DNA from: Massalongia carnosa
Lineage: Eukaryota
Direction: 5' to 3'
NCBI GenBank assembly: GCA_965645245.1
Contig: OZ287081.1
Coordinates: forward strand, 558,001-622,000
DNA: 64,000 nt
The notes under the pieces were generated by a model. That model ran no database searches. It saw nothing but the letters and a program-made list of their open reading frames with translations, and was not told the DNA's origin. Numbering within the stretch: the first letter of the stretch is position 1; each line of letters starts with the position of its first letter. The translations under genes and the position numbers were made by a program. This document shows, one piece after another, positions 5,633-52,627 of the stretch.

Positions 5633-8060
5633 TCAATCATCATCCGTAGAAGTCGTCTCGGAATCTTCCGAATCATCGCTCTCCACACTTCCTTCCTCAA
5701 TCTCCCATACACCTTCCTCTCCTTCTCTACTCTCCTCACCCCCAACCTTCTCTCCAATCCCCTCCTCATCCTCATCCTCATCCTCATCATCCTCCTGGTT
5801 CAACACCCCGAACTCCCCGCAAATGTCCCATCGATCCCCCTTCGCCTGCCGGCTAATATACTTCACAAACCTCATCGTCCCTTTGTCCCTTAGCACGATC
5901 CCCAGCGTGTTCCAGCCGGCTGGCATGCTAAAGAGGACCGCGTCTTCGCCTATATCATCGTAGCCAGGGGCTTGGTAGATGGCCGGATCGGTTTTGGGCC
6001 GTGCTTTTTGGAGAATTGGGTTCGACGCCGTGGAGGATTGAGCGTCATTACTCATATTTGAGGGTAATATCTCTAAGCCAGGCTTGAGGTCTTGCTGTGC
6101 TACTTTATCTTCGTCGGAATCCTCATCCCCCGCCATATAAGTTACGTATCCGCCAACATCGCCTCCTATAGGAGAGATATCTATCGTGTTAGCGTCTCCG
6201 TCAGCGCTTTCTTCTGATTCCCAACCTGGGGTAGGGGTGATGGCTAGCGTGATTTCAAGCCTAGCATCCTCTTCATCATAGCCAGTCGCAAGCGTATAAT
6301 CCTTCCCACGCCGAAATCGGCGAGCAAGGATGTTGTGCGAAGAAATGGTCAGACCGGTGGCAAAGTGAAGCCATTTGAAAAACGGAAGAGATGGTAGAAG
6401 GTTTTCCAAGAGGTCCTGAAGCGGCGATTGGATTCTTCGATCCGTCATGTGGCCTTCTCGACCTTGTTGGAACAGATATCGATGCTTATGAGGAGGTCGA
6501 GCTATTGCCCAAGGAGTGGTCTTTTCAATCTCGGCAGTTTTGGTGGGTAGAGGTTGAGATTCTTGGATGGAGATGAAATCCCGTAACGAGTTCGAGAACT
6601 TTGATGAGAGGAATGTTGAAAGTGTTAGGAAACACTGCTCAGAAAAGAGGGTGGAAACTGATTCAAGCGTGTCGGGAGTTAGGTATGTTGGAGCAATGTA
6701 TTTAAGCAGGAAGGTCAAGTCAGCTTCCGACAACTCTATCTCCTCTTTTATGTCACGGGATGATTTTTCCTGAACAGCATCTTTTGACACCGATATATTG
6801 TCTTGTGTGCTAGCTACCTTCTTCTCACCTGCACCATGTGGTAACGCTGCCTCGTCTTGGGTGCTGAGAACTGATGCAGCTTCCCCAGCGGTTTTCGATA
6901 GCAGTGCGTCGCTGTGTGAACTAGGAATTGTTTTTTGATTAATACCATGTTCTGGCGATAGTACATCCGCGTGTTTGTTAGAAGCTGGTTTATTATCATC
7001 ATCTCTGGATTCGTCCTCCGGTGTGGCAGGAGGTGCTACCTCCTTACTATCGTTAGCACTGAAATCGGAATTAAAACTGGCGTTTGCAGAATGTAGGATT
7101 TGTTTAGGTAGGTCAAATAGATCTTCCTTGCCCTGTAATTGCATCAGACTACTCTTTTCGGCCAATGTCTCCTCTAGTCCTCTAACAAATCCTTCTTCTC
7201 CTGCTTGTGGAATATGGTACCACCCGCTAATTGCTGTCCGTACTCGAACGTCATCGTTAGCTTCATCATCACCCCCTTTGCTAGCGTAAACCTCCTCCAC
7301 ATCATGGAAACTCTCTCCTGGCTGGACAGCGAAGAAGCTCAATTGATTGAAGGCTGGTGGTATTGATAAGTCATGGTCTGGACTTGGTACTTTAATCACT
7401 TTCCCATCCTCGCTTGTATGCTCCACGATGGGATATAATCTCAATGCGCCGCCCCATTCTTCCTTCCATGGTATGTCTGGGTCTGTCAGGTATAAGATAT
7501 AGCTAACTCTCCGGCTTCCAATTACATCATCATGGCATAGTAGATGGCAGCCAGGCGTATATACATTGATTGCCATATCCGTTTTTCTCCCGGAAAGTGC
7601 GCCAGCCCCAGTGATGGTGGAAAGGTAGTCCCGGAAAGTTGAGGAATAGAGAGCATCACGTAGTGTAAGCAAAGACGGCAAGAGTTTGAGAGAGGAGTCG
7701 TCGAGGCCATCGAGGTTTGCAAGGTCACCCGATTGGTGTATCTTGTAAATGTCGGTCTCTTTGGGGGTGAAGGAAAGATTATCCTGGATTTCAGTGCGCA
7801 CATTGCGCAGAAGCTCTGGGGACACCAGATCTTTGATTACGCCATGCTTGTATCTACATCGTATCAGACGCTGGCCCCAACATCTTCTTTAGGCTTACTT
7901 ACGGCTTAGATTCCGTATAGCTCTTCACGAGCTTATCTAATGCCTCTTTGTTGAACAATCCATCGCGGAACCAATCTAAATGAGCAGGACCGACAGCAGC
8001 TCGCTTTTTGGGAGCGGTTGCTTCGACATCATTCAATGCGTCATCAGCTTTCCGCTTCAT
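5633..8060 (-). CDS. TPA1: Prolyl 3,4-dihydroxylase Tpa1/Ofd1 (2OG-Fe(II) dioxygenase); intron 7854-7902
   Basis: Starts MKRKADD and splices to PYKHGVI. Contains KETDIYKIHQSGDLANLDGL, LLCHDDVIGSRRVSYILYL (HxD), SFHDVEEV, a C-terminal Ofd1 domain (ARPPHKHRY, RRFRRGKDYTLA, WNTLGIVLRDKGTMRFVKY) and an acidic tail. Confidence 0.95.
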
Positions 8061-11749: not shown

Positions 11750-13688
11750 ACCGTGCGACCGAGGTAAATCCGATGGACCGCACCCGGAGCTACGCTCCAG
11801 GTGCGGCTCACCTCCATGACGCTATCATCTCCATGACGCATTTTTAAAAATTTCTATCATCTATCATCAACCATTTATTATTCAACCACATCATGTCTGA
11901 TTCGTACAAGAAACGAGAGGCTAACATTGCAAAGGCCTTAGATGCATTTGCGAAGAACACATACAAATCAGCCGCAGCCTGTGCCAAAGAATTCGATATT
12001 TCACCTCGTCTATTTCAAAGAAGACTACCTGGATATAGCAAGCGAAAAGCAGTCAATATGAGGCTGTCTGCTGCACAAGAACTAGCCCTGAAGGAGTATA
12101 TTGAATTTCTTGATGATATTGAATTATCAATGAGATTGCCATTGATTCGCGGTGCAGCTAATTATTTGTTGCAATTGCAACATCCTTCCTCGTCTTCATC
12201 TTCTCTCACCCGCGTAGGAAAATGCTGGACCGGACGATTCTTGAAAAGAAATCCCCAATTTTTCATGCAAAAAGGCAAGCCATTAGCAGCCGAAAGGAAA
12301 AACGCTCACAATGTTACGGATATTCAAACTTATTTCTCTTCATTTCAATCGACTGTAGCCCTTCTTGGTATAACTCCAGATGATATATGGAATATGGATG
12401 AGACAGGCTTTCGAGTTGGCTGTGGGGTAACCCATTTGGTGGTAACACTATCATCACATAAACGAATTATGATCGCTGATCCAGACAATCGAGACTATAA
12501 CTTCGGTCGAATGCATCAATGGAGTTGGCGGAAGCGTCCCATCCTTTTTGATTTTGAAAGGGGTCAACATACTTCACAAATGGGCCTTAGAGAATGATTT
12601 GGAAGATGATATCGTGTTGACTACAAGCGATAGCGGCTATTCGAATGATTGTCTAGCATTAGAGTGGCTAAAGCATTTTAATGCTCATTCAAAAAATGTT
12701 CAAAAAGGAGCGTTTAGGCTTCTTTTGTTGGATGGATATGGATCTCATCTAACGTATGAATTTTGGGAATATTCGAAAGAAAATAATATCTGTTTATTCA
12801 GATTACCCCCCCATTCAACCCATTTGACGCAGCCATTGGACGTTGGTGTTTTTCAGCCAATGAAACATTATCATGCTCAAGCGGTTGACAACGCCATTCG
12901 GTTGGGTGACGTTGACTTCAATCGTCTGGATTTTCTGGCCGCATTCAATCAATTTCGTACAAAGGCATTCAAATCATCTACTATCAAATCAGCCTGGGAA
13001 AAAACTGGGTTGATACCTTACAATCCGGAGGTAGTCTTGACCAAAATTCGTGCTTTAAATCCGGCATTACCACCACTACCAATATCATCTTCGGAGACAA
13101 TAATCCTACCTCATACCCCCAAAAAGCCCAAAGCCGTTGCTAAGGAAGGGGAAAACATTATTCTGCGAATGAATAATAATGAAGAAATTACTCCAGAAAG
13201 AATGCGACGTTTTATCAAAGGGTCGGTTGCAAACGCTAATTTACTAGAATTGACGCAACGCGACTTGCAAGCCACACACACAGCTGCATTAGCTAAAAGG
13301 GCCCGAAAAAAGCTTGTTGGCACCGTTGTTCAGAAGGGAGGAATCGTTACCGTTCGAGATGTGAGGCAAAATCACCTACATCGTACCCAAGAAGAGGTGG
13401 AAAGGGAGGAGGGTCGTCAAAAGCGTGCTGAGACGGCTAGACAAAAGAAAATATTTCTCTATGGAAAGCGATAGCTAAACGGTTTGGCTTGGTGGGTAAA
13501 AAGGCCGAAAGCTGGATAGATGAACGTCAGCCTTTGATTTTGAATAGCTTCATTTTGAAAGGGTCAATCAATGGATATAATGTAAATAGTTGAGAAATGC
13601 GTCATGGAGATGATAGCGTCATGGAGGTGAGCCGCACCTGGAGCGTAGCTCCGGGTGCGGTCCATCGGATTTACCTCGGTCGCACGGT
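11750..13688 (+). mobile_element. Fot1/pogo-family DNA transposon, 1939 bp, perfect 94-bp TIRs, TA target duplication
   Basis: TIRs at 11750-11843 and 13595-13688 are exact reverse complements (accgtgcgaccgaggtaaatcc...gacgcattt). TA flanks at 11748-49 and 13689-90. Confidence 0.95.
11893..13474 (+). pseudogene. Fot1/pogo transposase (CENP-B-type HTH plus DDE_1) with one frameshift at about 12497
   Basis: Motifs WNMDETGF, LLLDGYGSH and LPPHSTHLTQPLDVGVFQPMK. Adding 2 nt in the TATA run at about 12497 restores DNRDYITSVECINGVG and joins the two ORFs. Confidence 0.9.
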
Positions 13689-13938
13689 TAGAGCGATCTC
13701 AATAAATAAGGATTGCGCTCCTGGAAGTAGTTTGAAAAAACAATGACATAGTGTCTGCGGGCAGTACATCGAAACAGCGGCGCTGGTTGAATGGTACCTA
13801 AGTAACATTTCGAGATGTGCTAAACTTTGATTCGAAGGAAGCGCTGCTTTGTAAAAGACGAAGTTTGATTGTTGTTGAATTGCACTGCCCTAGTATGGAA
13901 GTTTCTATGCTTAGTCAGCTGAATGTATATTAGCCGCT

Positions 13939-15264
13939 CACGCGGGTGACAAAATAAATTGCAACGTGTAAGCGAATTTACCCCCCCTTTTTTATTCAAA
14001 TTTTCATCTCATCATCAACCATCATCTGCATAGCTGATAAAATTCATCTAAATTACATGAGATCAATAACCAGTCATCGCCCCCTTTGCATCTTTCACCT
14101 CTTTCAATCTTTTGGGCATGGATAACACCCTTTCATTGATAAATTCCTGACTGACTCGAGCCCATCCCTCCCTAATCAGCTGCTCCAAACTTGCATCGTC
14201 CCAATGAGGAAATTTACGAACATGCTGCTTTGCGGGCTGCCAGCAATTTTCAATGGGAGCTAGATCAGGAGATGAAGAACAATTGAAATAGTGCTCTAAA
14301 TCGTGATCTAACTTCCACTTTTTGACCGCGTTTCGTCTCTTGCCCGTGCCATGACCAGAGTCTCCATCTTCTTCAAGTACGAAGTCATCTCCACGCTCCA
14401 ACCAGGGCTTGACGACGGGATCAAGAATAGCGTCAATATACACCTGATGAGTCATTTTTCCATTGCTATTGCTGGGCACATCGTAGAAGTAGATATCCGA
14501 CTTGAAATTGTAACCAACTGCTGCCCAGCAGTGCTTTCTTTTACGATCTTTCTCAGGTGGTGCATCACGATGCTGAATACAATCCCAACGATATCTTGTT
14601 CCGGGCTTACGAATGATTCGTAACTGTCCTTCAGGCCCGTAGCCAAAATGAATCTCATCGCTGAATCGTACGCGATGCCAGTCTTCGGACCGAGGATATT
14701 TATTTAACATAACTGTAGCAAATTCTTCTCTTCTTTCTTCTGATGCCATTGCCAGCCACCCTTCGACACAGGATAGACATTTGTGATAATTCAAGGCAGC
14801 TGTAAGAGTTCTCTTCATTGTACGTCCCATCACGTCGGCCCCAATCTCCTGTGCTAAGGCATCCCATGTGTAGCGTTTTCCTTCCAATTGTAGATCTTGA
14901 TCCTGCAGAATGTGATCTGCCTCCTTCAGCTGATCATCACTAATCTTTCGCTTTCGACCCCGAGTCTCAACGAGAGAAGAATTGTGACGTGTGCGAGAAG
15001 AAGCTCCGCTTTTGATGATGTTATAGCCCGCGCGCTCGGCCACGCCAAATTCCTGAAAAATGGCCCGTGGATCGAATGGAATTGCATGTGAGATGAGAGA
15101 TTGATAAGCTCCTTGAACTTTGGCCTTTGTGGGAGTATCATAATGAGGCTTTTTGGGTCGAGACATTGATGATGAGATAAAAAGTTGAAAAAAGGAGGGT
15201 GTTTTGATGGGGCATTCAGGGGTAAATTCGCTTACACGTTGCAATTTATTTTGTCACCCGCGTG
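13939..15264 (-). mobile_element. Tc1/IS630-superfamily DNA transposon, 1326 bp, 46-bp TIRs, flanked by CCGCT direct repeats
   Basis: TIR cacgcgggtgacaaaataaattgcaacgtgtaagcgaatttacccc at both ends. A second imperfect inner inverted repeat reads ttcaa.tttt.atctcatcatcaa. CCGCT lies at 13934-38 and 15265-69. Confidence 0.9.
14063..15166 (-). CDS. Intact Tc1-like transposase (367 aa, DD38E)
   Basis: Probable start MSRPKKPHY. Motifs TRGRKRK, WHRVRFSDE, LEEDGDSGH and SSSPDLAPIENCW; 38 residues lie between the second D and the E. Confidence 0.9.
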   Translation of the reverse strand: MSRPKKPHYDTPTKAKVQGAYQSLISHAIPFDPRAIFQEFGVAERAGYNIIKSGASSRTRHNSSLVETRGRKRKISDDQLKEADHILQDQDLQLEGKRYTWDALAQEIGADVMGRTMKRTLTAALNYHKCLSCVEGWLAMASEERREEFATVMLNKYPRSEDWHRVRFSDEIHFGYGPEGQLRIIRKPGTRYRWDCIQHRDAPPEKDRKRKHCWAAVGYNFKSDIYFYDVPSNSNGKMTHQVYIDAILDPVVKPWLERGDDFVLEEDGDSGHGTGKRRNAVKKWKLDHDLEHYFNCSSSPDLAPIENCWQPAKQHVRKFPHWDDASLEQLIREGWARVSQEFINERVLSMPKRLKEVKDAKGAMTGY

Positions 15265-16536
15265 CCGCTCTTCTCCCTCTATAGAACAATCAACCGTCTC
15301 AAGTTTCAACAATTGTTACATAGGGTAAAAATGCAAGTATGGCTATGAGTTTTGGACGTTGAGGTTCAAATATATGAAACTGCTGATGGCCCAATACCTC
15401 CTAGCTCCGAGGTGTTGCACCTAGGGTGGTAGGGTCAGGCAGGTATCTAAGCCCGTCCCTCTGACAGGCTTTAAGGGTGATTTTGAACTCGATTGAGTTA
15501 GAATCCTATTTTACAGCGGACGATCATATTGTACGGAATGTAGAGTACATATTAATTAATCAGCCATGCCAGCTACTTGGGATACGCACGATATTCTATC
15601 AGCTTTTTTAGCGATTTAAAAACCATAGTTTCAAACCCACAGAGGTATATGGGATCATTGATGATGGAAGCAGGTTGCTATAAGGATGCCCAAATCAAAC
15701 CATCTACGCCTTACCGTGGAAGTCAAATCATCAGCCAACGTACTTCAACTTTTCTGCCTTGATCAAGCAAGAAACAGAATCTGCGGAAAACCGCAGGACC
15801 CAATCATCGCAGAGGTAGAACCATTTGCATGGTTGGAGGGTAATGAACATGGACATCTTTTTGAGCCCACCAACAGCATTATATGGCCATGATCCGTCTG
15901 CAGAAGTTGTTTTTGTTCTTGTTCTAGCTATCGTGCGTAGAATTCAAGAATAGTTTCTTAACATATTCGCACCTGTTTCAATTCATACATACTGTCTCTT
16001 CCTCATGTAATGCATCAAGCACTCATCTGTCAAGGAAATATCAATGAACCATTTCACAAAGCGTAATTATTATGGCTTTGATGTTGGAACACACCAATAG
16101 ATTGTGTTAGCATCACCTTGGTGGGTTACTTGCTTTAAACGGCGATTTGTATGAGAATTAGTTGAGCTTTCAAGGCCGACTATTACGAAAGACGGATTCA
16201 GTCACCATTCCGCATTCTGGAGAATTAAGGCAGGACCACTTGCTCGGGGGGGGTGGATTTTCTCGGATTATGGCTAGAAGGTAGTTTGTACTGGTGGTTA
16301 CGTGACCCAACTTTATACAAAGGGTGTCTCATGTCTATATGATATCCTGTTTGGCTTGAGAATCGCAGTCTGTTTGGCTATTTGGCGTCAGAGCAATCCA
16401 ATGAAAAATCGATACATAATGGAGCGATCCTCTGTCAACATGATTTCAGTCCATTTCCAGGGGTCAGCATGGAACATCCAATTCATGGTAATAACCCCCC
16501 CCCCCTTGCCTACAACTATTCTGATTAATATACTAG

Positions 16537-17520
16537 ACATCGCTGCAACTCACTCTACCATTCCAATCTATCTATTTCGAGTTCATTCTTCAGCCAGTCA
16601 AGGCTTTTTCTCTCACTCCGGCTTCTACTCTTGTCAATCGCCCTCCTCCCCCTCCCTTTCCTTTGTTGAAATTCAATCGCACCTCTCAAACCATCTTCTT
16701 TAGCGCAATTCCCTTTCCTAGTGAATATCAGCCACTAGTTCTCTACTCTGGGCTCTAGTTTTTGCTAGATATGTATAAGTCGCTACGTAGGGAGACTGCC
16801 ATTCAAATTAGCTTAATCGCTGCGAAAGAGATTGAAACCAAAACCATATACCCAGCAAACTACCTAGTGCGGGCTTACGGATTGGAAAGCACAGGAAGAC
16901 TGTGGCACGATAATCCAGAGGGCGAATACCTAACAATGGGGAAGATACCTCGCGCCGCGATACTTGGGACCATCGAGTTTCACGATGTTACTCAACCAGT
17001 GAAACTGTTACTCCCGGAACTAGCTATAATTGGTGACGATAGACCGAATCAGAGGATGAGGGCTTTAAGGCGAGATTGTTTCTATTTCAAAGAACCCGCC
17101 GCAGCAGATGATGCGGTAGAAGATATTTGCCTCGAAAGGACTGGCCTTTTACGGAAGAATGCTACCAGGCGGCCCATCAAATCGCAGATATGTTCAACAA
17201 TAGAGATGCGCTCTTTCCATTGATCACGATGTGCCTGTCCTTTCGGAAGCGGGATGTCTCATCCATCAGCCTCAGTATTCCCCAACTCCAGAAGGCTCTT
17301 GTTGGTAAGTTTCCACATGCGTATAATGAGCAAAGCTGCTACATCCAAGATTCTCTAAGTCAATTACAGGGTGCGAAATCCCAGAACACTACCTGTTCCC
17401 TAGTTGGGACGCGGCCATTTCTTTAGGCTCGCCGGAACTGAAGGAGTAGGAAATGCGGATTAAAGCGAAGCTTTGAGATCGCTTTATAGAGGGCTACTAC
17501 TGGAACGAATACAGCATCAG
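16537..17520 (+). pseudogene. Disrupted fungal DUF7587-like protein with an ADP-ribosyltransferase-like R-S-E pattern
   Basis: Motifs PIYLFRVHSSASQG ... ISATSSLLWAL ... EGEYLTMGKIP occur across stops at 16701 and about 16719-24 and frameshifts. Boundaries are approximate. Confidence 0.5.
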
Positions 17521-25794: not shown

Positions 25795-27262
25795 TCACAT
25801 AACCACGCACAACGAGCCGCCGCTCGTAGCCAAAGCAAGCCCTCCCATGCTAAGCTGCGCCAGCGAAGATGCAATTTGGTTATTTTGCTGGTAGTCTGGC
25901 TGCGGATAGATTGGTTGATAAAAAGGCTGTTGATAAGTCTGATGAGGTGGCTGAGTATAGTTGGGGGTTGGAGGTGATCTCAGAGCCAGGTTTTGTGCAT
26001 GCAAACCGGCCTGGAGATTGCTCAGCCGTTCCTCCTGCTTACGCATGATTTCAATGTAGGCCTGATCCATCTGGTTGATGGTCTCGGCTGTCTGCTGCAG
26101 AAGATTGTCGCGAAACTCTTTCGAGCCCTTTTGCATCACATCCTCAGCTTCACGGGTGACTTCGCGTAATCTGGAGACCTCGGCGGCGTGGGCTTTGCCT
26201 TGGTTCTCGGCTTCGACGCGGATGCGCTCCATTTCCTTGCGAGCTTTTTGGATCTGAACTTCTTTTTCTTTAAGAAGCTTTTCATTGTCAACCTGTAGCT
26301 TGAGCTGGTTTTCTGCAAGGCGTTCCATATCCTTCTGAATCTTATCTTGGGCGTCCAGGACGACCTGAGCATATTTCATGTCATTTTCTTGAAGAGCGTC
26401 CTTCATCTCCTCCTCTTGCTCCTTGAGCCTTTTCTCAAAAACTTCTTTTTGCTCGTTCATTTCCAAGTTGAGGGCTTTGCCCGCATCTGTCTGATCTAGC
26501 GCTTTGTTGCCATCAGCCATTTCTCTTTGGAGAGTCAGCACCACCTTTTTGTGTTTGTCAACAAGAAGACCTATTATTCCCAAGGCAGAAGTTTTATCAT
26601 TAGAGAATCGCCTCATTATGCTTCCATTTCGAAGCATGGAGCCCCAGAAATCATCCGTCGACACCATCTCCGCTTCTCTGGTTTTCCCGACCTCTTGGGG
26701 TGTCTTGTCCCACATAGTAGTGACTAATACTACCGAGTCTAGGTTCTCTAAGCCAGCCAGTTTTTGAAACATACGCAAATTAGTTCGGTGGGAGCCTTTC
26801 ATCCTGGTTTCACTGATGCTATGCAAGTACACCAAGCCGCTTAGTCTGATATCATGGCGATAAGCAAGCAGTAGCCAACCGGCAATATCCCTCAAAACGT
26901 CCGTATCCGACTTTCTCGTATCATCAAATCCAGGTGTGTCGATCAGATGAACGGTGGAGTCCCGATACTTAAAGGAGTAGCTTTCACATTTATCGGTACC
27001 TTTCAGATGAGCGAAGCATTCGGTAAGAGAAATAGTTTCTTACACGAAGAAAGAGTATCCCCAATGATGCCTGACAGGTCTTCACAGCATTTGGAAATAA
27101 AGGTTGATTTGCCAGAACCAGTCACTCCCATTACCGCTATGAATATATCATCTCTTCTAATTGACGGTTTGATCGTCAGTTTCCGTGAAATCAGGCTCAC
27201 TCTAGTTTACATTTATGGAAGAAAGTTGAAACCAACTCAAATTGTTTCAGTGGTAGATGCAT
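25795..27262 (-). CDS. AIG1/septin-like P-loop GTPase A with a long coiled coil and C-terminal CaaX (CVVM); introns 27157-27236 and 27000-27043
   Basis: Spliced motifs are IAVMGVTGSGKSTFI (G1), SCT (G2), LIDTPGFDDT (G3), LSGLVYLHSI and VTTMWD (G4). An E/K/Q-rich helical region and a Q/P/Y-rich stretch follow, ending SLCVVM*. Confidence 0.85.
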
Positions 27263-27737
27263 ACCGTCGACTCCAGAACGAGTCGTGGCAACAACAAGAG
27301 AACGAGAGGTGGAGCTCATCGTGGGTAGAATGGATCAAGCGGGCTGATCTCAAGGGACTGGTTGTTTAAATGTAGTCCTACCCGTGCAGAATATCAAAAT
27401 GATGTTACATGAGGCAGTGCTAAGACTCAAATACTGAACTCGGGAGAAAAAGTTTCCTCGTTGCAGAGTACGGAGTATAAGCTTTGAAGACAAGGCTCGC
27501 CCCCAAACATTTCCTTTCGGGACCGACCCAAGTGTGCATGGCGCTGCAGGGTTTATGCAACGTTATTGAAGGATAACCTTTGCACTAAACCTTTAGCATC
27601 CGCTTCGGGAGAACTCACCCGATCTTCAAATAACCGTAATTGCAACTAAGGGCGCGATCGAAACCAACATCAATTGCACAATCTTGCTCTTCTCTTCCAT
27701 ATTTGATCGTTGATGAGCCTTGCACAAGGACTGGTCA
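27263..27737. promoter_or_regulatory. Putative bidirectional promoter between GTPase A and GTPase B (475 bp)
   Basis: Inferred from the divergent ATGs at 27262 (-) and 27738 (+). No specific sites identified. Confidence 0.5.
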
Positions 27738-29597
27738 ATGGATGATAAGAGTTTAGTCACCACACCGTAAGTTATTGAGCCTGGATTCACTGAAAAATGT
27801 CCTGATGATGTTGGCAAAGTGTTCGTCACAGGCTCAAGGCGGACGAGGGGCCAGCCTCGGCTGGCTGCCATCAGGGGGCTGATGATATTGTCATCGCTTT
27901 CATGGGTACAACTGGGTCAGGGAAAAGCTCTTTCATTCAAGCCATCACTGGTCGAGATGATATTGTTGGTAATAGTCTTCAATCAGGTACTCTTTCTGCG
28001 GGAATGCTCCGAGGTCTTGGAGCGAATTCTCGTTAAGCTGAACCCAGCACAGCGACCGAAGTGGTCAAACCATACAGGACAGTCATCGACTCAACAAACT
28101 TCGTTCTTGTTGATACTCCGGGCTTCAATGATACGCGAAGAAACGATGGTGACATCCTCAAGGAAATCGCAGACTGGCTCAATGCTACCTATCGAGAAGG
28201 ATTTAAGCTGACTGGAGTCGTCTACCTACAACCAATTAATGTAACACGCATGGAAGGTACAGATCTTCTTAACTTCCGCGTTTTTCGGAAACTGTGCGGA
28301 AAAGATACCTACAAGCACATTGTCCTTGCTAGCACTTTCTGGGATCTTGTTGATGAGGTAACTGGAGCCCGCCGGGAGAAAGAGCTCTGCGATACCCCCG
28401 AATTTTGGGGTAAGATGATTGACCAAGGATCTCGAGTGACGCGAATCCAGGATTATGCCGACTCTAAGGAAATCCTATTGTGGCTGGCCGGAAAATCTAC
28501 TGTTACGCTAGGTATACAAAAAGAAATGGTGGACCAAAAGATGCTACTATCTGATACTGCGACTGGTAAAACTATCAGCCAAAAGATGGTTTTGCTTAAA
28601 GCTGAGCATGACGCGAAGATTATCAAAGCAAAACGGGAAGCAGCTGAGCTTGTGAAACAACGAGACGAAGAGAATCACAGGAAAGCAAAAGAGTACCTTG
28701 ATCGGCACAATTCAGTAAGCGATCTAGCCAAGGCGCTTGCGGACAAGCAGAGGCTTCAACAAGAGCGGATCCTCATAGCTCGCTTAAAAGATGCTGAGAA
28801 GGAAGCTGGGATAAAGAATCAGAAAGAGATTCAACAATTGCGCCTTACTCAAGAGGAAAACAAGCGGCTTGTAGCAGAAAAAAACCGTCTCGCTCGCGAA
28901 CTGGAAGTCAGAACAAAGGAGAGAAATGCCGAAGAGGAAATGACCCGAGCATTCCTATATAGAAGCTACAGGGCCGAGTTTAACAGCCAATTTCGGGTGT
29001 TAGAACAAGCTCGATCTCAAAACATTATCCGAGCTCATGCCTATGGTTTTCATCAACAGTCGTCACTATTTTCGAGATGGTGTGACAAATGTTTCAAGTT
29101 GATAAGCTTCGAAGGGTTTTATCGTACGTGATGAGCTGCGACAATGCGTCCCATATTTCTCTGGTTGAGTTAGAAAATCGGCATGCATGCTGACCTGAAT
29201 ATAGACTGTGAAACCCTTCAATTATATATCTGTCGTACATGCTGGACAGAAGCTCGACGCTGTTGCAGTCCAGAAATACAACACACACCTACTTACCGGG
29301 AGATTAATCGCCCACCGTTTTGCTGCCGTCGATTAATTGCCACTCCCCACATATTGAGATGTGGTCGATGCACAGGCTTCTGTCATGGGCTCTATTTCCG
29401 TACGTTTTGTTATGGTTTTTGTAACATTCAAAGGGAAGAAGGAAGGTTAATCCAGAGCTGATCGAGTTTCCATTGCAGATTGCTGTGGCTGTAACAACGA
29501 TGCCTTCGACATTTGCCTCCAGTGCGTTACGGCAGGTCATACATGTCAAAGCCCGACACACTGGCTTCATCCCATGGTAAATTGGCCTACAGTATGA
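27738..29597 (+). CDS. AIG1/septin-like P-loop GTPase B with coiled coil and C-terminal ZZ-like zinc fingers; introns 27767-27831, 27987-28052, about 29124-29204 and about 29400-29478
   Basis: Motifs IAFMGTTGSGKSSFI, LVDTPGFNDT, LTGVVYLQPI and STFWD. After the coiled coil come WCDKC..FYHCE..YICRTC and LRCGRC..YFHCCGC..FDICLQC..GHTC. Stop TGA at 29595-97. Confidence 0.8.
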
Positions 29598-32768: not shown

Positions 32769-33559
32769 TTCATCTCAAAAACTTCAACAGCCAAGTCCCA
32801 TCCCTCCATCTACCCCACCAGTTCCCTTTCTCTTCTTCGTGGCCCGTTCCCTAATTTTTAAGTTCCCAGAAACCGCTCTCCGAGTCGCTCACTCTCAAAC
32901 GAGTCCTGAACCCTGTAAACAGGGGAGGGTCAAACTAGTAGGTTAGGTCCTCAGATCCAATTTCTTTATTCGTTTTCTTCGGCCTGGCGACGGCTTAGCT
33001 ATTTGGCACCTACCTACCTAAGAGGCCCTCATTAGCACCCCTCCGCAGTGGGAGCCGCAGAGGGGTTGAGGGGTAATAGCGGCGAGGTGAGTGCGGAGAT
33101 GGCAGGGGATGTCGCAGGCTGGGATTTCTTTTCTCCCATGAGGTCTCGGGAGTGGTAGCTTTTGACGGTGGGGTTTTTGGTTGTGCGCGTGTGTCTAGAA
33201 GAGGTTACGGAGGAAAGAGGGATGGAGTGGTGAGTGCTGTAGGATTTTCTCCATTGTTATTTCTAGATTTATTGTTCGCAGCACCTAGGCCATAGATAAG
33301 TTAGTGCGGGTGTGCTAGAAAAACTCGTTTTTCTCTTTCTCTCAAGACAGGATTCCCGAGGTGAAGAGAACCAATCTTTCCGGCCGTAGTTTGTAAGTGA
33401 GTGCCATGGTCTTCCTCGCTTCTCCACACTGCTCTCAATTGATTGTAAGAGGACTCGTTCCGCTCTCATTGGCCTTGACAATTGCGGGTCCAATCCGAAT
33501 GGTCCGCGGCCTTCCATCAAACAAGTGTAAACATCTCAGGGCCGACATCGCGACCAGGG

Positions 33560-34239
33560 AGCAGTAATCACACCGGAAAAGAACCAGGTCTTCGAGTCAT
33601 CGGACTCAGGCACAGTAGCCTTTTGAAAAATCCAGGTTCGCCGCCACCATTTCTTTCTCATGATGGTGAGAATACCATCCCAATCTTGCCGGCATTCGGA
33701 GCCAGGGACGTCAAAAACATCTTTATTATCGCCAGAGATGGTTGTATTGGCCGCTAACGAGTCGCCATTTGAGCGTTGTGAAGGATTCCGTTCAGCTCCC
33801 GCATTTTCGCTATTGCCAGCTCATTCTCCTCGTCATTCTCGAGCCAGACGCCAACGCTCGCCGCCCCTTCATAGATTGCTTTCATCAGCCGCACTTGAGA
33901 ATTTTGTTCAGGAATGTCTTGCTGATTAATGCATATTGCGTCTACCCATAGGAAGCGGTCAATCTTCTTTAGGCGACCTCCGATTTGCATCAGAGCATCA
34001 TGCAGATTTGTGGTAACCGGAAGAACTTGAGAGTCTATGTGAAGCGATTCTGGATAGATTTCGTCATTCCATGTATAGGATAAGGCTGAATAGGGGGGAG
34101 CCTTGTCCAATTTTACGTTATGAAGCTCACATGTCAAACTCTCTATGTTCTGGATTTTAAGAGACGAAATTCACCAGCAAGTAGTGGTTGGTCCACGAGC
34201 CTCTCCATTTCGATCGTACTATATAGACATCGAAACCAT
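33560..34239 (-). pseudogene. HET (heterokaryon incompatibility) domain gene, truncated and frameshifted
   Basis: Motifs PYSALSYTW, VTTNLHDAL and LWVDAICINQQDIPEQNSQVRLMKAIYEGAASVGVWL. Stop at 33754. The WWRRTWIFQ motif is in another frame at about 33620-33650, and no full C-terminal half is seen. Confidence 0.85.
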
Positions 34240-43643: not shown

Positions 43644-46600
43644 ATGGACAAACTCGAGGCTCTTCAGCAAGGACCATTCATCCTCGCCGGCTGGAAGAAG
43701 CACCTAGAAACTCATCCCGATAACGTGTACAAGCAGGCTATTTTTGATATTATTCGGTATGGGGCCAAGATTGGGTATACCGGCCCAGAACAATTCATCC
43801 TCAGCCCCAATCTGCTATCAGCAAAAGAAGCTCCTGATATACTCACTAAAGATGTCGAGGAGCAGAGGGATAAGGGACGATTGACGCGAGCAGATATTCT
43901 TCCCTCCAAGTTGATATCATCCCCATTAGGTCTCGTACCCAAATCAAATGGTACATGGCGCCGTATCCATCATTTATCTCATCCTGAAGGATCGTCGGTA
44001 AATGACTTCATCCCTCAGGAATGGGGGGCCTTGGAATACCCCACATTCGATGACGCTGTCGTGCATATTAGTAAAAAGGGATTTCTCCGATGCCTTTCGC
44101 CATACAGAGTATACCCGTGGCTAAAAGCGACTGGTGGTTGCTGGGATTTCAATGGGATAATGTTTACTGGATGGAGCGCTTTCTACCTTTCGGCTTGCGC
44201 ACGTCTCCTTTTCTATTCGATTTGTTTGCAAAGGGGATAAATTGGATGTGTTTACAAAAGGGAATCAATACCGGGACACCCCTTTTCACTACCTTGACAC
44301 TCCATTTCACTACATTAACACCCCCAAGTAAGCTAACCAAATCGGGTACAAATTTCCCTCAGGCGCAGAAATAACTGGAGAAAACATGCTCGATTTGATG
44401 AATTCAGGTGTGTTTTAGACAGTCGTTTAATGCTTTCTCGATGATTGTTTCATTGAATTGGGCTTCATTTCGTGTTTACATTTGAAAGGCCTGGAGCAAA
44501 CCCACTCCATCTACTTCAATCGATTGAATAGCTTCACCGGAGGCCACCCCTTCACCTTGTGACTGCCCTCTGCCCCGTCCTCGCCCTCGCCCTCGCCTCG
44601 GAGGCCCATTCAACACCTCCTCGACATGTTCGAACCCTGATAACTCACGTTGGGTAGAGTTATCAGCCTCCCATTGAGCTCTTTCCGATTGTAAACGCAT
44701 CGCGATTGACGGACGCCCTCGGGGTCGGGCTACTACCTCGGGGTCGCGCACCAATAGCAAAGGATTGATGAAATTTGGAGGTGGTGATTCGTGGCGATAA
44801 TAAGCCCGATCAAGGGGGCGCTGAAACCACCATTTGATGTGAATGTCGTCGCGCTGAAGCACATTGGGGGCCGGGCCAGAAAGTCGAACCTACTTGCAAT
44901 AGAATTAGTATGTTTTCAGGGCTATTTCCTTCAGTTTATCAACTTTCCTGGATTTCATGAGCACATGGTAGCCCCATTGTTGCTCGAAATGCCCCGGTGC
45001 ATAATGAAAGAGGGGTTCGTTTGATCCAAAAAACGTTCGTACTGACTATGCACCTTTAACAATGCAAAAGGCGTGATATAAGCCCTTACATCGCTGTAAA
45101 GAGGTCTTCGTAGTCGGGTAGGAAAGCGCATTTTAGCCTCATCCAGTTTTATCACGTACTCTTGATGCTGATTCTTTAATAATAAATCAATGTTGTCAAC
45201 CACCGTTTTGAGATCACCGGTAGAAAATCCCAACTGATGTTTCAAGATAGCATGGCCCCCCTACACCCTAGAGGTAGCAATATTGTCGAAATGAAGAACT
45301 TTGTCGAGGAATGCCTTGACGAATTTTCGTTTATATGGGGCTAGCCATGTGTCTACCAGGTACTGCACTTCCGCTGAATGATCATGTGAATAAGCATCAT
45401 TCAGAGCGTCCCAATTGACCTCGTATTCCTCTTCAGTCTTTGAATAAACCACCGCATGCCACATGCTTTCGAAGGCCATCCAGTCATCGTCGGAATGAGC
45501 ACTATGTCTAAAAACAGGTTTCCAATGCTCCTGAACATTCCTGTGAATATGCCACAAGCATAACAAATGACGTGTGTCAGGAAACACACTGTAAATAGCG
45601 GCCATGAGGCCAATGTCTCGATCGGTGACTACTACCTTTGGATAGGAAATATTCAGCATTCGATAAAGGGTTTTTAATTGTTGAAGAAACCAAACATAGT
45701 CCTCTTACGTTCTTGACGAAGAAAGGCAAACCCCTCATAAAATGAGGTGTTTAGGGCCGTTGTTCCCATTGTTGATATCAATGGTAATTTGTATCTGTTG
45801 GTTTTATAGGTGCAGTCCATGATTAACACGTCGGGGTTGGTCATCAGGGTGCTTTGACAGGAATCTTTGCTGAAATAAAGATGTGTTATGCGATCGAGAT
45901 TGTCTTTGAGATAAAACGAATTCCTACTGCAATTTAGTATGTAAAACATTGCATCTTCTCCGTACATACCAATGAGGCCGATTTAACTCCTGCATCAACG
46001 CCTGAATGGGAGTCAGTCGTCCTAGTGCCTGTGTCGAATTTCCGCCTTCGCATTGTAAATATCTTGTCGCTTGAAAAGAGGATTATTGTCATTTATATCG
46101 TCAGTCTGACCGAGCCGAAGAGACGAAAGGATTTAACTCGGTTTCATTTGCACCTTCGTTGCGCGCACAATTTCATCAGCTATAGCTGGGGTGATAGCAA
46201 GTTTTCTGAGCGATGGATGAGAGCCTTCCACGGTAGCAGAGTGATTGTGGCCTGGATTTCGAATATCGCGAACTATCCATTCATCGTCTTTAGACTTGAC
46301 CACTACAGAGAAAGGACAGTCAATGGTCCTGGAGGTTCCATGTAAGCGTTTCTGTCCTCGAGGCTGACGGTTCTTTCGTCCTCGGTCGCAACAAATATAA
46401 CATGTGTCTATCAATCCAGTGGTCGCACACTTTTTGGTGCGAAGCTGGCAGACAGCATACCCCTCAGGGCCTGCGTGTTTTTGCATGGCGACAAGAAGAT
46501 TGAGCGATCCATGTTTCGTTCAGCAGGGTAGGGGCAAGATTCATATTGATAGCTGATTGGTTAATGTGCATACAATGACGAATGGAATGCATGCAGATAT

Positions 46601-47648
46601 GCCGAAGTTCCAGCTTCGGAACGGATAAACAGCCTGATTTGGTTAGCTTACTTTGGGGGTGTTAATGATTTCTTGGCAGTTTGCCGCACTAATCCCGAAG
46701 CGGAAGCTTCCACTCGGTACTTCTTCGGAATCGCAGTCAACGAAAAGAAAAATAAAACTGGTCATGTGATCGATTTCTTAGGCATTGAATTGGATACTAT
46801 GCTCATGGAAGCACGGCTACCACCAGACAAACTGCAGAAAGCCAAAGACCTCGTCAAACAGGCCTTGCAAAAATCATCGATTAGAAGGGAGGAATTAGAC
46901 TCCTTGGTGGGAATTTTGTCATTCGCAGCTAAAGTGGTAGTGCCAGGGAGAGCTTTCCTCCGACGTCTTTTTAGCGACAAAAGCCATGTCTCGTGGGCGT
47001 CATATTCATATTAAGGAGAATATCAAAGCCGACCTGCAGTGGTGGCATCTTTTTTTACCTAAATGGAATGGCATTCGCATGTTAGACCGTCCTCGCGAGA
47101 CATTTCGTCTTTGGACGGACGCATCAGGGTACGGCATTGGGGCCTACATCCTAGTGGAGGATCATACCAATTTCACCATGCCCGCTGAGCATGCACTTTC
47201 TTAACGTTTCACGTCTCGGCTTAGGCCAACTCACATCAATGTCAAAGAAATGACAGCAATATTACACGCTTTGCGTAAATGGCTCCCCGTTTGTGCAGGG
47301 AGCCATGTGATTTTCCACTGTGACAACTTTGCTGTCACGTCAGGAATAAGGAAATCATCTATTCGTGGAAACGCTATGCGGCGTCTTCGGGCAATCGCAA
47401 TGCTGACCGCTATTCATGATATTCGGATTGAAATACGTTGGATCCCAACAAAGTCAAATGAGCTCGCTGACCTCCTATCGCGGGGCAAATTGGAGGAAAT
47501 CGCTAACAAATGGCCCAATTTACAGGAACTTCTACTCAAATCCTATCACGCGACCCTCCCGAAAGCTGGTATAGCGAAATACCTCTATCCCGACCAGCAG
47601 CTAGATACCTGTGGTGGGCTTGGCAGTCAAAACCCGCAGTCTGTATGA
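43644..47648 (+). pseudogene. Ngaro RT/RNase H, split by the Mutator insertion and frameshifted
   Basis: RT N-half at 43644-44260; RT C-half and RNase H at 46667-47648, in several frames. Confidence 0.85.
44260..46667 (-). mobile_element. Mutator-like element (MULE), decayed, nested in the Ngaro RT
   Basis: Fragmented transposase at 46486-44476 with a FAR1-like N-terminus (CDRG..SRTIDCPF..HNH), LIMDCTYKTNRYKLPL, VVVTDRD..LMAAI..VFP..HLLCLWHI and TSRV*GGHAILK. Inverted repeat cattaacacccccaagtaagctaaccaaatc at about 44313-44343 and 46636-46667. Confidence 0.85.
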
Positions 47649-48087
47649 CACAGGGAGAAGAAGCTATGTAACACACTGCAGAATATCAATGAACGCGACT
47701 CCATTTCCGGCAACCATACAGACCTTGTCATCTTGGATAGCGATGCTAGGAGAACACAAAATACAGCCCAAAACCATCAAGGCCTATCTAGCCGGAGTTC
47801 GGTCCAGCCAAATCGACACGGGCTTTGAGGATCTAGAAACGTTTCAACATCCCGTACTAAATAGAATCATTGCCGGCATAAAGCGAAAGAATGGCGAAGC
47901 CGACAAGAAAGAGCGAATGCCCATTACGAAAAACATACTCCTTCGTTTAGTGAAACGATTGGACTTAGCCGACAACGCGCAGGCCACTCTACACGCAGCA
48001 AACTGTTTGGCATTCGCAGGATTTCTTCTCGCAGGCGAATTTACGTGTGCCGCCCGTAGCATGCGTAGTCAGCTAAAGGGCCGCTAA
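47611..48087 (+). pseudogene. Ngaro tyrosine recombinase, C-terminally deleted
   Basis: The N-terminal SAM-like part is present. GFLLAGEFT has L where the catalytic R of GFLRxGE is expected, and homology stops immediately after it. Confidence 0.8.
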
Positions 48088-50090: not shown

Positions 50091-50804
50091 CTATATCTCC
50101 GAAAGTGGGCTACTTCCTGAGCTGACGATAGCAGAGCTGGTGTCGGGGACGGATGCTTGATTCGGGAAACCGCCGCCATGCGTGTAGATGTTTTCTTCCC
50201 AGGCACGTAGGTGTTCAAATTGCCCACCCTCAACAATGATTAGTTTGTCTTCAGCTGGTATTCCCAACAACGTTCCTTGGAATCTTGACTCTTCACTTGT
50301 CTTGCTATGCTTTTTTTTTAATACTGTCAGTTAATAGCATTAGTTCTGTGCAGGTCGTTTAAGAATCGATAGATTTGGCAAACCTGTAAGGAAATCTTCC
50401 CGTTCCTCAAGCGCTGCCATGTCAAGAGCTTCTCCAGGTGTAACGGCAAGCCCGGCAATCCTCCGAATTTCATGGTTTCCCTCACCCTTCATCCACCCGA
50501 CAAATGCTTCAACTCCCCTCAAATCTTCTTCATCTCGGCACTGCTCTTCCATCGTACTCATCTGAGGCCACAGTGCTCCCACATCTTGCAGTGCCATACG
50601 CACGTCGGTAATAGTAGGCGTGGGATCTTTATGATTGGCCAGCGCATGTGAAGCTGTTTTCGTTGCTAATAAGGTAAGATACCGGGCAGCAAGATCCACG
50701 ACCGTGTCTAAGACAGCTGGTCGAGTAGTAGTGAATCCGGCTGCACGAAGAATGTGCAATACGGGAGGTCTCAGCAAAGAGTTGTAGAAGGCGCTCGAGG
50801 ACAT
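50091..50804 (-). CDS. TAF3: TFIID subunit Taf3-like, bromodomain-associated (BTP) histone-fold protein; intron 50324-50383
   Basis: LLRPPVLHILRAAGF..TRPAVLDTVVDLAARYL...TITDVRMALQDVG. The second exon VLKKKHSKTSEESRFQGTLLG is in frame to TAG at 50091. Confidence 0.8.
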
Positions 50805-51088
50805 TATAGAGCTATTGAAATAAAGTTAAGATGCAAGAAGAATACATTTTTATAGTTCATATACTAGAAAATTATTGCCGATGTTCTAAAGGCTAAGCTA
50901 AGTGAGTTGATAAATGCATTAGAACTCATGTCTAATCGATTGAATGAATTAAGACGCTAGTTTAAGCCTATGTATTTTATTCGTTTCAATGACCATCAAT
51001 TCAACCTAACCTCAATATAATGGTTAATGTGGTATTGCGTTGATTTGCATAATCGCCTCATTCTAATTCTCATCACATCTCAAACAAC

Positions 51089-52627
51089 ATGTCGCAACGC
51101 CCAACGATAAAACTCAAACTTACAACAACCTCAAAACCACCGGCACCTTTATCAGACTCCACTCCCTCGTCAGGCATTCCCAAACTAAAACTTAAATTCA
51201 ATAGTACCTCCAAGCCCTCTGCTGTTCCGACATCTACCCCTACGAGCGCTCCAAAAGCTAAAGCAACCCGTAAACCCAAGAAGGAAAAACCAATTCGCAT
51301 TAGCACCCCAACTTCAAAAAAGCGAGACCTCGCTGCTTCAACCCTAAGTGATGAAGAAGACGACGAGACTACTTTAGTATCAAAATCTGCTTCATTTTCA
51401 AAACCCACGAAGTTGACGGTTAAACAAACACGGGGTCCTTCCATTCCATTTATCCGTCTTAAGGCCATCGGCAAACCTCCCATACGCCACTTTGGTGTTG
51501 GGTACGACAGTGAAGCTTCAGATCGCGAAGACGATCCTGCCGAAGAGGATGAATTCATATTGCGCATGGCGCCTGGCCCAGATTGTGACTATCTACGACA
51601 AGCTGTCATCGATAAGCGATTTGGACCGAAGTCCGAAGGGGGAGCGGACGTGCGGATGCGGTTCTTAAGAGCCGATGGGCGTAGAGCGGTTGTTACTATT
51701 CAAGGACGACACTATGCAGCCTGTTTGGTTGACCTACCCTGTATTATCGAGGGGATGAAAAGTTGGGATAAGAGGGGTTGGTGGAAGAGCGCTGATATTT
51801 GCCAGATGCTGCTTGTACTAGGGAGGATAGAGAGGGAGGAAGAGGCTCTCGTTTATTCCCTACCGACGCGAGATTTAGACGAGAAAACCTGGCAATATGC
51901 GCATGGGTTGACCCCGCCAATGCGATGGGTCCGGAGAAGGCGGTTCAGAAAACGGGTTAGTAATCGAACCATAGAAGCTGTTGAAGAAGAAGTAGAAAGA
52001 TTATGTAAAGAGGATGACGAATGCGAAGGCGAAAGCCGCTATGAGGTTCTTGACCTTGATCAACTAACCCGGGAGCAGAGCGCGGTGGAGGAGGAAAATG
52101 GAGGCTATAATATACTCAGCAATTCTGAGACGCAAGGGGCCTTTGAATACGGCGAGCAGGATGCAGAAGGGGAAGTGGACGATATTACTGAATTCTTCCA
52201 AGGCACTGGGGATGATGACTGGGACGACGGTTTAGAGGCCGACCTCGAGCGTGCAATGATGATGGACTATGAGACTAACGAACCTTCCGGATCCACAGCT
52301 ACCCTAACTCAGCCTCCGCTCGCACTGGCAGAATCCCCTTCTATGATTGTTACGCCTTTGAAGGACGACAGCGGCGATGAGGAAGAATCATCCGATGAAG
52401 ACGCCGAGGCCTCCGACATTGATGAGGACGCACGGGAACGGCAGCAGGACTTGCAGCGGCAGCAGGAAGAAATCGCAGATTTGGAGGCTGCTATCAAGAG
52501 CCAGGAAGTGGAGTTGGGACGGCTACAAACCCCTATTCTGAGGCAAAAACTCGTGAAGAAGATACAGGGGTTACAAGTAGACTTGGGCCTCAAGATGGCG
52601 GCAATAGGACAGGGCGATGATGATTAG
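51089..52627 (+). CDS. TAF7: TFIID subunit Taf7 (TAFII55_N domain)
   Basis: EDEFILRM, LVDLPCIIEGMKSWD..WWKSADICQMLL and HGLTPPMRWVRRRRFRKR, followed by an acidic region and a C-terminal coiled coil. Single exon. Confidence 0.92.
   Translation: MSQRPTIKLKLTTTSKPPAPLSDSTPSSGIPKLKLKFNSTSKPSAVPTSTPTSAPKAKATRKPKKEKPIRISTPTSKKRDLAASTLSDEEDDETTLVSKSASFSKPTKLTVKQTRGPSIPFIRLKAIGKPPIRHFGVGYDSEASDREDDPAEEDEFILRMAPGPDCDYLRQAVIDKRFGPKSEGGADVRMRFLRADGRRAVVTIQGRHYAACLVDLPCIIEGMKSWDKRGWWKSADICQMLLVLGRIEREEEALVYSLPTRDLDEKTWQYAHGLTPPMRWVRRRRFRKRVSNRTIEAVEEEVERLCKEDDECEGESRYEVLDLDQLTREQSAVEEENGGYNILSNSETQGAFEYGEQDAEGEVDDITEFFQGTGDDDWDDGLEADLERAMMMDYETNEPSGSTATLTQPPLALAESPSMIVTPLKDDSGDEEESSDEDAEASDIDEDARERQQDLQRQQEEIADLEAAIKSQEVELGRLQTPILRQKLVKKIQGLQVDLGLKMAAIGQGDDD

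Follow-up and report, generated by a model that had tools for sequence, protein, structure and literature searches.

A conserved head-to-head pair of AIG1-like GTPase genes in Massalongia carnosa and other ascomycete fungi: a candidate membrane-anchored surveillance module

The stretch of DNA analysed here (the window) comprises 64,000 nucleotides of Massalongia carnosa (contig OZ287081.1, positions 558,001 to 622,000; C15:558001-622000 of a 52-Mb genome in 25 contigs) and contains two GTPase genes, A (25795..27319, minus strand) and B (27738..29597, plus strand), arranged head-to-head. Both are open after splicing at GT-AG, and the splice sites of all six introns as well as all G motifs are intact; the introns themselves were called from GT-AG ends and from the fit to homologous proteins. 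The initial annotation had described two intact, spliced genes starting 475 bp apart, which is confirmed, the gap holding for an A start at 27262 and shrinking to 418 bp with a start at 27319. The shared intergenic region (27320..27737) is likely a bidirectional promoter. An alignment of A with B covers 352 aa at 35% identity (E 4e-52), and the two genes have an intron at the same position and in the same phase (1) immediately 5' of the G2 Thr, which bears out their proposed origin by an old duplication.

Gene A, placed in the anchor class by its gene model, homologs and tree position, encodes 478 aa in three exons. Exon 1 (27201..27319) carries the start codon, at 27319 or at the alternative in-frame ATG 27262, and is followed by a 44-nt, phase-2 GT-AG intron (27157..27200); a model with a 1-nt micro-exon at the 5' end was dropped because this single 44-nt intron already yields an open frame. 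Exon 2 (27044..27156) contains the G1/P-loop, GVTGSGKS, and intron 2 (27000..27043, 44 nt, phase 1) is the one common to A and B. Exon 3 (25795..26999) accommodates G2 (T79), G3 (DTPG), a G4-like TTMWD, the putative arginine finger R143, a predicted coiled-coil region and the tail. The coiled-coil region (25987..26484, approximately residues 250-415, with approximate borders) is proline-free and 40-60% E/K/R/Q. The tail begins with a P/Q/Y-rich part (25876..25977) that has PPTPNY where orthologs start with PPxY, continues with an uncharged, hydrophobic, Gly/Ala-rich segment (25810..25875), likely a membrane helix on the basis of its hydropathy, and ends in the CaaX box CVVM (25798..25809) before the stop.

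Gene B, of the finger class on the same three grounds, encodes 522 aa in five exons. Intron 1 (27767..27831, phase 2, inferred) precedes exon 2 (27832..27986) with G1, GTTGSGKS; intron 2 (27987..28052, phase 1) lies 5' of the G2 Thr, and exon 3 (28053..29123) includes G2 (T63), G3 (DTPG), a G4-like STFWD, the putative arginine finger R127, the coiled-coil region and the first half of finger 1. The motifs G1 to G4 and the long coiled coil annotated at the outset are thus found in both genes, with G4 in a G4-like form and the coiled coil predicted only from composition and a heptad scan. Two Cys/His fingers follow. Finger 1 (29078..29285), of a degenerate ZZ type, is split by a phase-1 intron (29124-29204) and has Leu in place of an ortholog Cys; finger 2 (29360..29572), also of ZZ type, is split by a phase-1 intron (29400-29478) and has Gly and Ala in place of two Asp found in most orthologs. 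Since a phase-1 intron occupies the same place inside each, internal duplication is the most likely origin of the two fingers.

Homolog searches returned 200 proteins with B and 255 with A as query, and the named ones among the matches listed, the best 120 of each set, are all fungal. A profile search among 1.84 billion representatives at 50% identity recovered 3252 clusters at E ≤ 1e-30. Of 90 aligned members, 74 match MMR_HSR1 and 46 match AIG1 at E ≤ 0.001, the AIG1 scores lying mostly close to or under the curated threshold. Against the AIG1 profile (PF04548), with a curated cut-off of 27 bits, the window's A exon (without G1) scores 18.5 bits, full-length orthologs 23-25 bits and a few relatives 29-34 bits. 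Profile matches in PDB are headed by Der, with GIMAP4 third (E 9e-10), and include GIMAP7 (6.5e-9), GBP5 (1e-7), septins and Toc, all confined to G1-G3; a PDB search with a single protein gave chance matches only. The AIG1 identity proposed initially therefore stands in part: the G domain of A and B is, from these sequence comparisons, fairly called 'AIG1-like', and membership of AIG1 itself, whose cut-off is missed, is unproven. The GBP N-terminal domain (PF02263) is matched weakly by 3 of the 90 members and by none of the window exons, and neither NACHT nor NB-ARC was matched in the window exons or in the family members scanned. Scans of prokaryotes and viral contigs, limited to one or two patterns each and not exhaustive, turned up no full-length relative: none of 40 viral and none of 49 prokaryotic candidates belongs to the family, and of 27 loci in a second prokaryote scan 25 match the G1-G3 stretch only, the other two being a partial match (L080) and an intron-bearing, fungal-looking locus (L079). 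The latter is on a contig of a bacterial metagenome-assembled genome and has spliceosomal-type introns, likely reflecting fungal contamination of the bin.

An Arg that follows LxYLH is conserved in 106 of 115 alignment rows, including 43 of 43 CaaX rows and 25 of 31 finger rows. We take it to be equivalent to the arginine-finger residue of Toc34 and GIMAPs, and it is accordingly a putative arginine finger in both classes. An arginine finger after the fourth strand is a trait of septins, Toc34 and GIMAPs, the paraseptins (PMC11238149, in part; here and below 'in part' marks a source available as partial text).

The tails of the two proteins differ in ways that are conserved within the window's own clade, as the initial annotation would have it. 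On the A side, C-x-x-M forms the terminus of all 18 complete relatives selected, and in all 19 tails the segment before the CaaX box has a mean hydropathy of 1.0-1.75 and no more than one charged residue. PPxY stands directly after the coiled coil, at the start of the tail, in all 16 A orthologs (sequences that are related and not independent), compared with 1.1 expected from shuffles. This motif is a ligand of WW domains, those of Rsp5 among them. In B, the Cys/His ligand pattern of a ZZ finger is recognizable, the window's finger 1 being one Cys short, and the profile containing the fingers yields 13 PDB matches, all to ZZ domains, including those of Nbr1 and p62, with weak E values (0.016-0.4). 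The best Pfam indication, ZZ_ADA2 at E 0.01, remains under the cut-off, and Atlas leads lie at 0.84-0.87; the ZZ identity put forward earlier thus agrees with the ligand pattern and the structural matches and falls short in the Pfam score. The acidic pocket of the Nbr1/p62 ZZ domain binds protein N-termini (10.1101/2021.02.07.430097, in part), and its acidic positions align with finger 2 of most B orthologs: all three are kept in 7 of 8 orthologs and one of three in the window's B. B differs from Nbr1 and p62 in that its fingers are joined to a GTPase and a coiled coil and in that finger 1 has no acidic pair.

Linkage was counted over 63 metagenome loci (numbered L) together with loci of the M. 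carnosa genome itself, the window and L011 included. Wherever 2.5 kb or more of sequence upstream of a finger-class gene was available, a divergently transcribed partner is present (15 of 15 genes, or 12 of 12 once sequences are collapsed at 80% identity), and in every case the partner scores as the other class; the class profiles were derived from the same sequences as those scored, but the class split is backed by the tree. When shorter contigs that already show a partner are added, 19 of 19 finger-class genes are paired, three on contigs too short to decide being excluded. Among other-class genes 43 of 57 have a divergent partner, and among basidiomycete-like genes 2 of 7, both counts being inflated by the inclusion of genes that neighbour ones already found. 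In the G-domain tree of 115 rows one branch (95/93) divides finger from CaaX proteins, although the bootstrap is not fully settled.

Further evidence of linkage comes from outside this count. A and B homologs have consecutive accessions in Leptodophora (KAL5326312/13), Leptodontidium (KAH6692748/49) and Friedmanniomyces simplex (B0A55_10019/10020) and accessions two apart in F. endolithicus, the latter from numbers that do not give orientation. Ten longest-contig sizes are common to the 120 listed A and 120 listed B matches, compared with 0-2 at offsets of 1-5 bases. L079, from a separate scan, is a further divergent pair with the same intron, and an Aureobasidium gene model (P0363) unites an A-class and a B-class domain in one protein. 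From G1 to G1 the window pair spans 777 bp and other pairs 784-1919 bp. Near-identical loci have flanking genes in common and other loci do not, with the exception of L016, where the order Ofd1-A-B equals that of the window; in the window Ofd1 and A are now 18 kb apart, with transposons and broken genes in between. These observations confirm that the pair is conserved in ascomycete fungi across several classes while its neighbours change, and the divergent linkage that the initial annotation suggested should exist in other genomes is borne out.

Other arrangements occur within the family. The M. carnosa genome has ten family matches: the window pair, a trio on contig C5, three single genes and two broken genes. 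The trio has a one-finger gene and a CaaX gene in head-to-head orientation and, in addition, a convergent third paralog; it contains the genome's second head-to-head pair (L011:2586-8150, at G000:C5 ~2245.6-2251.1 kb), both members of which end in CaaX. A single family member elsewhere in this genome is adjoined by a TPR gene with a terminal ZZ-like motif and an F-box gene (L015:500-3300). Four-gene clusters of two divergent pairs are found at L028, L035, L046, L047 and L052, and a three-gene form without a finger gene at L036, L037, L039-L041, L043 and L044. At four more loci (L027, L050, L054, L064) a member with a membrane tail faces one with a zinc ribbon, or a member with a hydrophobic tail faces one with SH3 or a long domain. 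L016 and L017 are near-identical, with A broken differently in each and B open in L016 and stop-containing in L017. Broken family copies at L012, L016, L017 and L062 indicate birth and death, pseudogenes and relocation being frequent in the family.

For the pair, the observations comprise its anatomy, the divergent linkage of the two classes, the conservation of motifs and tails, and persistence amid changing neighbours. That A and B make up a functional unit is very likely, and that they form a physical heterodimer is, by analogy, rather probable. The explanation we favour, with a probability of roughly 0.45, is that they are the halves of an ancient, co-inherited pair acting as a GTP-gated heterodimer, with A as the membrane anchor and B as a peptide binder, likely engaged in surveillance of non-self or damage. 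A common promoter would drive their co-expression; A would be prenylated at CVVM and its hydrophobic helix inserted in the membrane. The G domains could pair through the conserved arginine, as modelled on GIMAP2-GIMAP7, and the coiled coils could form a scaffold. The ZZ fingers of B may bind protein N-termini or serve as bait, while the PPxY of A, missing in the window copy, may bring in a protein with WW domains, for example a ligase of the Nedd4/Rsp5 type. The outcome would be removal of the target, membrane damage or membrane scaffolding.

A defence or non-self role, taken separately, we regard as about an even bet. A Pfam scan of 48 proteins chosen as long or unusual detected ANK (4), WD40-type (5), SH3 (2) and PNP_UDP (3) domains, and also WW, C2H2, HET and PF17111; the three PNP_UDP carriers are mutually related at 48-74%, and two proteins, P0428 and P0458, have a PNP_UDP-GTPase-ANK architecture. 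PNP_UDP, HET, ANK and WD40 domains are typical of fungal NLRs, whose tripartite layout is mirrored by PNP_UDP-GTPase-ANK (PMC4986451, in part), and ZZ is also present in NLRs of Sordariales (PMC12258605, in part). The presence of NLR-type domains on family members gives the immune idea indirect support. The unusual architectures (P0428, P0430, P0458, P0411, P0464, P0480) also include GTPase-HET, GTPase-WW-WW and GTPase-finger-SH3, and 33 of 132 new representatives contain at least two G3 motifs. The 2025 NLR survey in PMC12258605 (in part) left out a large orthogroup with matches to MMR_HSR1, RsgA, Septin, AIG1 and Dynamin_N, which is probably this GTPase family. The G domain of B diverges faster than that of A in most close comparisons, as a sensor might. 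A broader and more tentative proposal, which we consider possible but less probable than the explanation above, is that fungi possess another, so far overlooked kind of intracellular immune receptor in which a GIMAP-like GTPase switch replaces NACHT/NB-ARC, with head-to-head sensor and anchor pairs and swappable ZZ, WW, SH3, ANK and WD40 domains, some members also bearing NLR effector domains; the window locus would be one such pair.

Several observations weigh against the surveillance explanation. CaaX is also found on single-finger B proteins, where it terminates 6 of the 7 genes followed as far as the stop (L011, L025, L028, L029, L035 and L047, not L052), so that the two members do not in general divide their roles by anchor and the CaaX/ZZ split described by the initial annotation applies to the two-finger clade and not elsewhere. 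The window's A has no PPxY, and its B is without one Cys of finger 1 and two acidic residues (Asp) of finger 2; the earlier argument from intactness to selection accordingly holds for the open frames and is weakened by these losses. CaaX genes occur without a finger partner at L036, L037, L039-L041 and L043-L045, and L016 has an open B beside a disrupted A. The identities of A co-vary with those of B (rho 0.83 over 29 pairs, 0 of 2000 permutations), as shared descent would by itself lead one to expect. The NLR-type fusions rest on automatic gene models, some of which plainly join neighbours (P0055, P0247), and the effector-switch-repeat layout is found in relatives only, the window pair being without it. 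An NLR-like neighbour is present at 1 of 10 flank-scanned finger-pair loci, L035 only, where a four-gene cluster adjoins a SesA/NACHT-like/ankyrin gene. Diversifying selection is not apparent: dN/dS between L018 and L020 is low (0.03 and 0.16 for A, 0.09 and 0.12 for B), all 20 estimates, none including the window genes, are below 1 with a maximum of 0.71, and the alleles of F. endolithicus fall within single 90% clusters. Such low ratios between species give no sign of an arms race, and selection on the genes of the pair is, judging from them, purifying. Incompatibility in Podospora lowers 11 of 12 MMR_HSR1 genes (PMC4835503, in part), a set that probably takes in ribosome-assembly GTPases, the Pfam family being unspecific.

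The main competing explanation, which we judge unlikely though less so than the others, is a trafficking or disposal module without a non-self role, in which the ZZ of B picks endogenous cargo and the PPxY and lipid anchor of A lead to ubiquitin- and ESCRT-dependent vacuolar delivery, as with fission-yeast Nbr1. It draws on the occurrence of Nbr1 and p62 among the ZZ matches, on the PPxY in 16 of 16 orthologs, on purifying selection and on the binding of cargo N-termini by the ZZ of Nbr1, which relies on ESCRT (10.1101/2021.02.07.430097, in part); however, 3252 clusters at 50% identity, frequent pseudogenes and relocation, and NLR-type partners suit defence better than housekeeping genes. More improbable still is passive linkage, in which an old inverted duplication retained one bidirectional promoter and each protein is a homodimer. 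Every catalytic motif, the Arg included, is kept in both A and B, the head-to-head layout is frequent in the family (43 of 57 non-finger genes) and CaaX genes survive alone, all as this would predict, but it accounts poorly for an other-class partner at 15 of 15 finger genes in several fungal classes with changed flanks, and for the gene model that unites both classes. A toxin-antidote or heterokaryon-incompatibility locus, in which one product is lethal in the absence of the partner's matching allele, would fit the tight two-gene linkage, the faster divergence of B and a broken HET gene 4 kb from the pair, yet it is very unlikely given open frames without an intact partner (CaaX genes alone in L036-L045, B with a disrupted A in L016), the lack of deep allele classes in F. 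endolithicus and the absence of variants at the locus in four DNA-type contig runs, which represent no more than 3 samples, a weak test; the same runs show no splice joint. Equally doubtful is a module genuine in relatives and decaying in the window: the lost PPxY, Cys and two Asp and the transposon-rich surroundings are offset by intact frames, splice sites and G motifs and by terminal branches (0.098 and 0.12) like those of sister sequences (0.069 and 0.15).

The surveillance pair invites comparison with several known systems. With GIMAP/AIG1 proteins, especially GIMAP2-GIMAP7 (PMC8201404, in part), it shares a related G1-G3, a predicted coiled coil, paralogs in clusters, a putatively anchored member with a partner and, in the proposed mechanism, dimer-dependent control, but the similarity, limited to G1-G3, is no better than that to Der/EngA, the G4 (T-T/F/M-W-D) is unusual, a CaaX box takes the place of a transmembrane anchor, and ZZ and NLR-type domains and fixed head-to-head pairs set the fungal family apart. 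GBP1/2/5 and IRGs have the same order of GTPase, helical stalk and CaaX and a weak G1-G3 similarity, whereas the fungal family has a smaller G domain and other G3 and G4 motifs, with no homology past the P-loop core as far as tested, and A has a ZZ-bearing partner that GBPs do not. Plant head-to-head sensor/helper NLRs are likewise paralogous NTPases in divergent orientation, with a variable binding domain on one of the two. Fungal NLRs have PNP_UDP, HET, ANK, WD40 and ZZ domains in common with the family (PMC12258605, PMC4986451, both in part), but their switch is NACHT or NB-ARC instead of a TRAFAC-type GTPase, and the head-to-head arrangement, the rule here, is rare in Sordariales NLRs, at 13 of 225 two-gene clusters (PMC12258605, in part). 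Bacterial double-GTPase conflict systems (PMC7159879, in part) likewise comprise two paralogous GTPases with zinc ribbons and membrane segments, predicted to form dimers in defence; their GAP1 component has no counterpart in the fungal pairs. Of the Eleos system (LeoA/LeoBC), LeoBC is matched weakly by 69 of 90 family members, in the member shown over the G1-G3 stretch only. Neurospora doc-1/doc-2 (PMC4831770, in part) is also a linked paralogous pair, involved in fungal kind recognition, with one product at the plasma membrane; identity with A/B was rejected, as the doc proteins have 828-839 aa, are confined to Sordariales and have no GTPase domain reported in the available text.

Known fungal immunity is built on NLRs, HET proteins and gasdermin-like effectors. 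The two-gene module is real and conserved, and it is apparently undescribed: no description of this family's pairs was found in the literature searched, which lay mostly outside subscription journals and included the available parts of PMC8857920, PMC8195603 and 10.1101/2024.11.26.625400. 'GTPase' as a term is absent from PMC12881547, PMC6652019, PMC13557503, PMC4986451 and 10.64898/2026.06.16.732702, and a 2025 review of fungal cell death does not use the word. Already known elsewhere are heteromeric GTPase pairs, head-to-head sensor/helper genes and bacterial double-GTPase systems (PMC7159879, in part). If the immune interpretation is true, a family of more than 3000 clusters, in two-class pairs with NLR domains, would be a fungal counterpart of animal GIMAP, GBP and IRG defence. 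The pair lends itself to direct tests, being two small genes on a single, likely shared promoter with mutable CaaX, Arg, PPxY and ZZ motifs.

The surroundings of the pair contain the decayed neighbours noted initially. The broken HET-domain gene (33200-34200, minus strand; PF06985, E 7e-24) has stops and frame changes, and a DUF7587 gene lies in split frames (16278-17220, plus strand). Transposon-related sequences, at 11848-15253, 44900-47700 and 62496-63737, comprise DDE transposases of Tc5/pogo and Tc1 type, remnants of MULE and RT-RNase H sequences and a Crypton-like gene with NDC10_II/GCR1_C. An Rfam scan of 22-36 kb of the window gave no match, and RIP indices are flat over the whole window. 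Core genes occupy 1-938, 5633-7888, 50340-52627 and 56275-57570 (bHLH, Ofd1/Tpa1, Bromo_TP, TAF7 and a phytase-like esterase); two of them, bHLH and Ofd1, are found beside the pair in L016 as well, arranged in another order.

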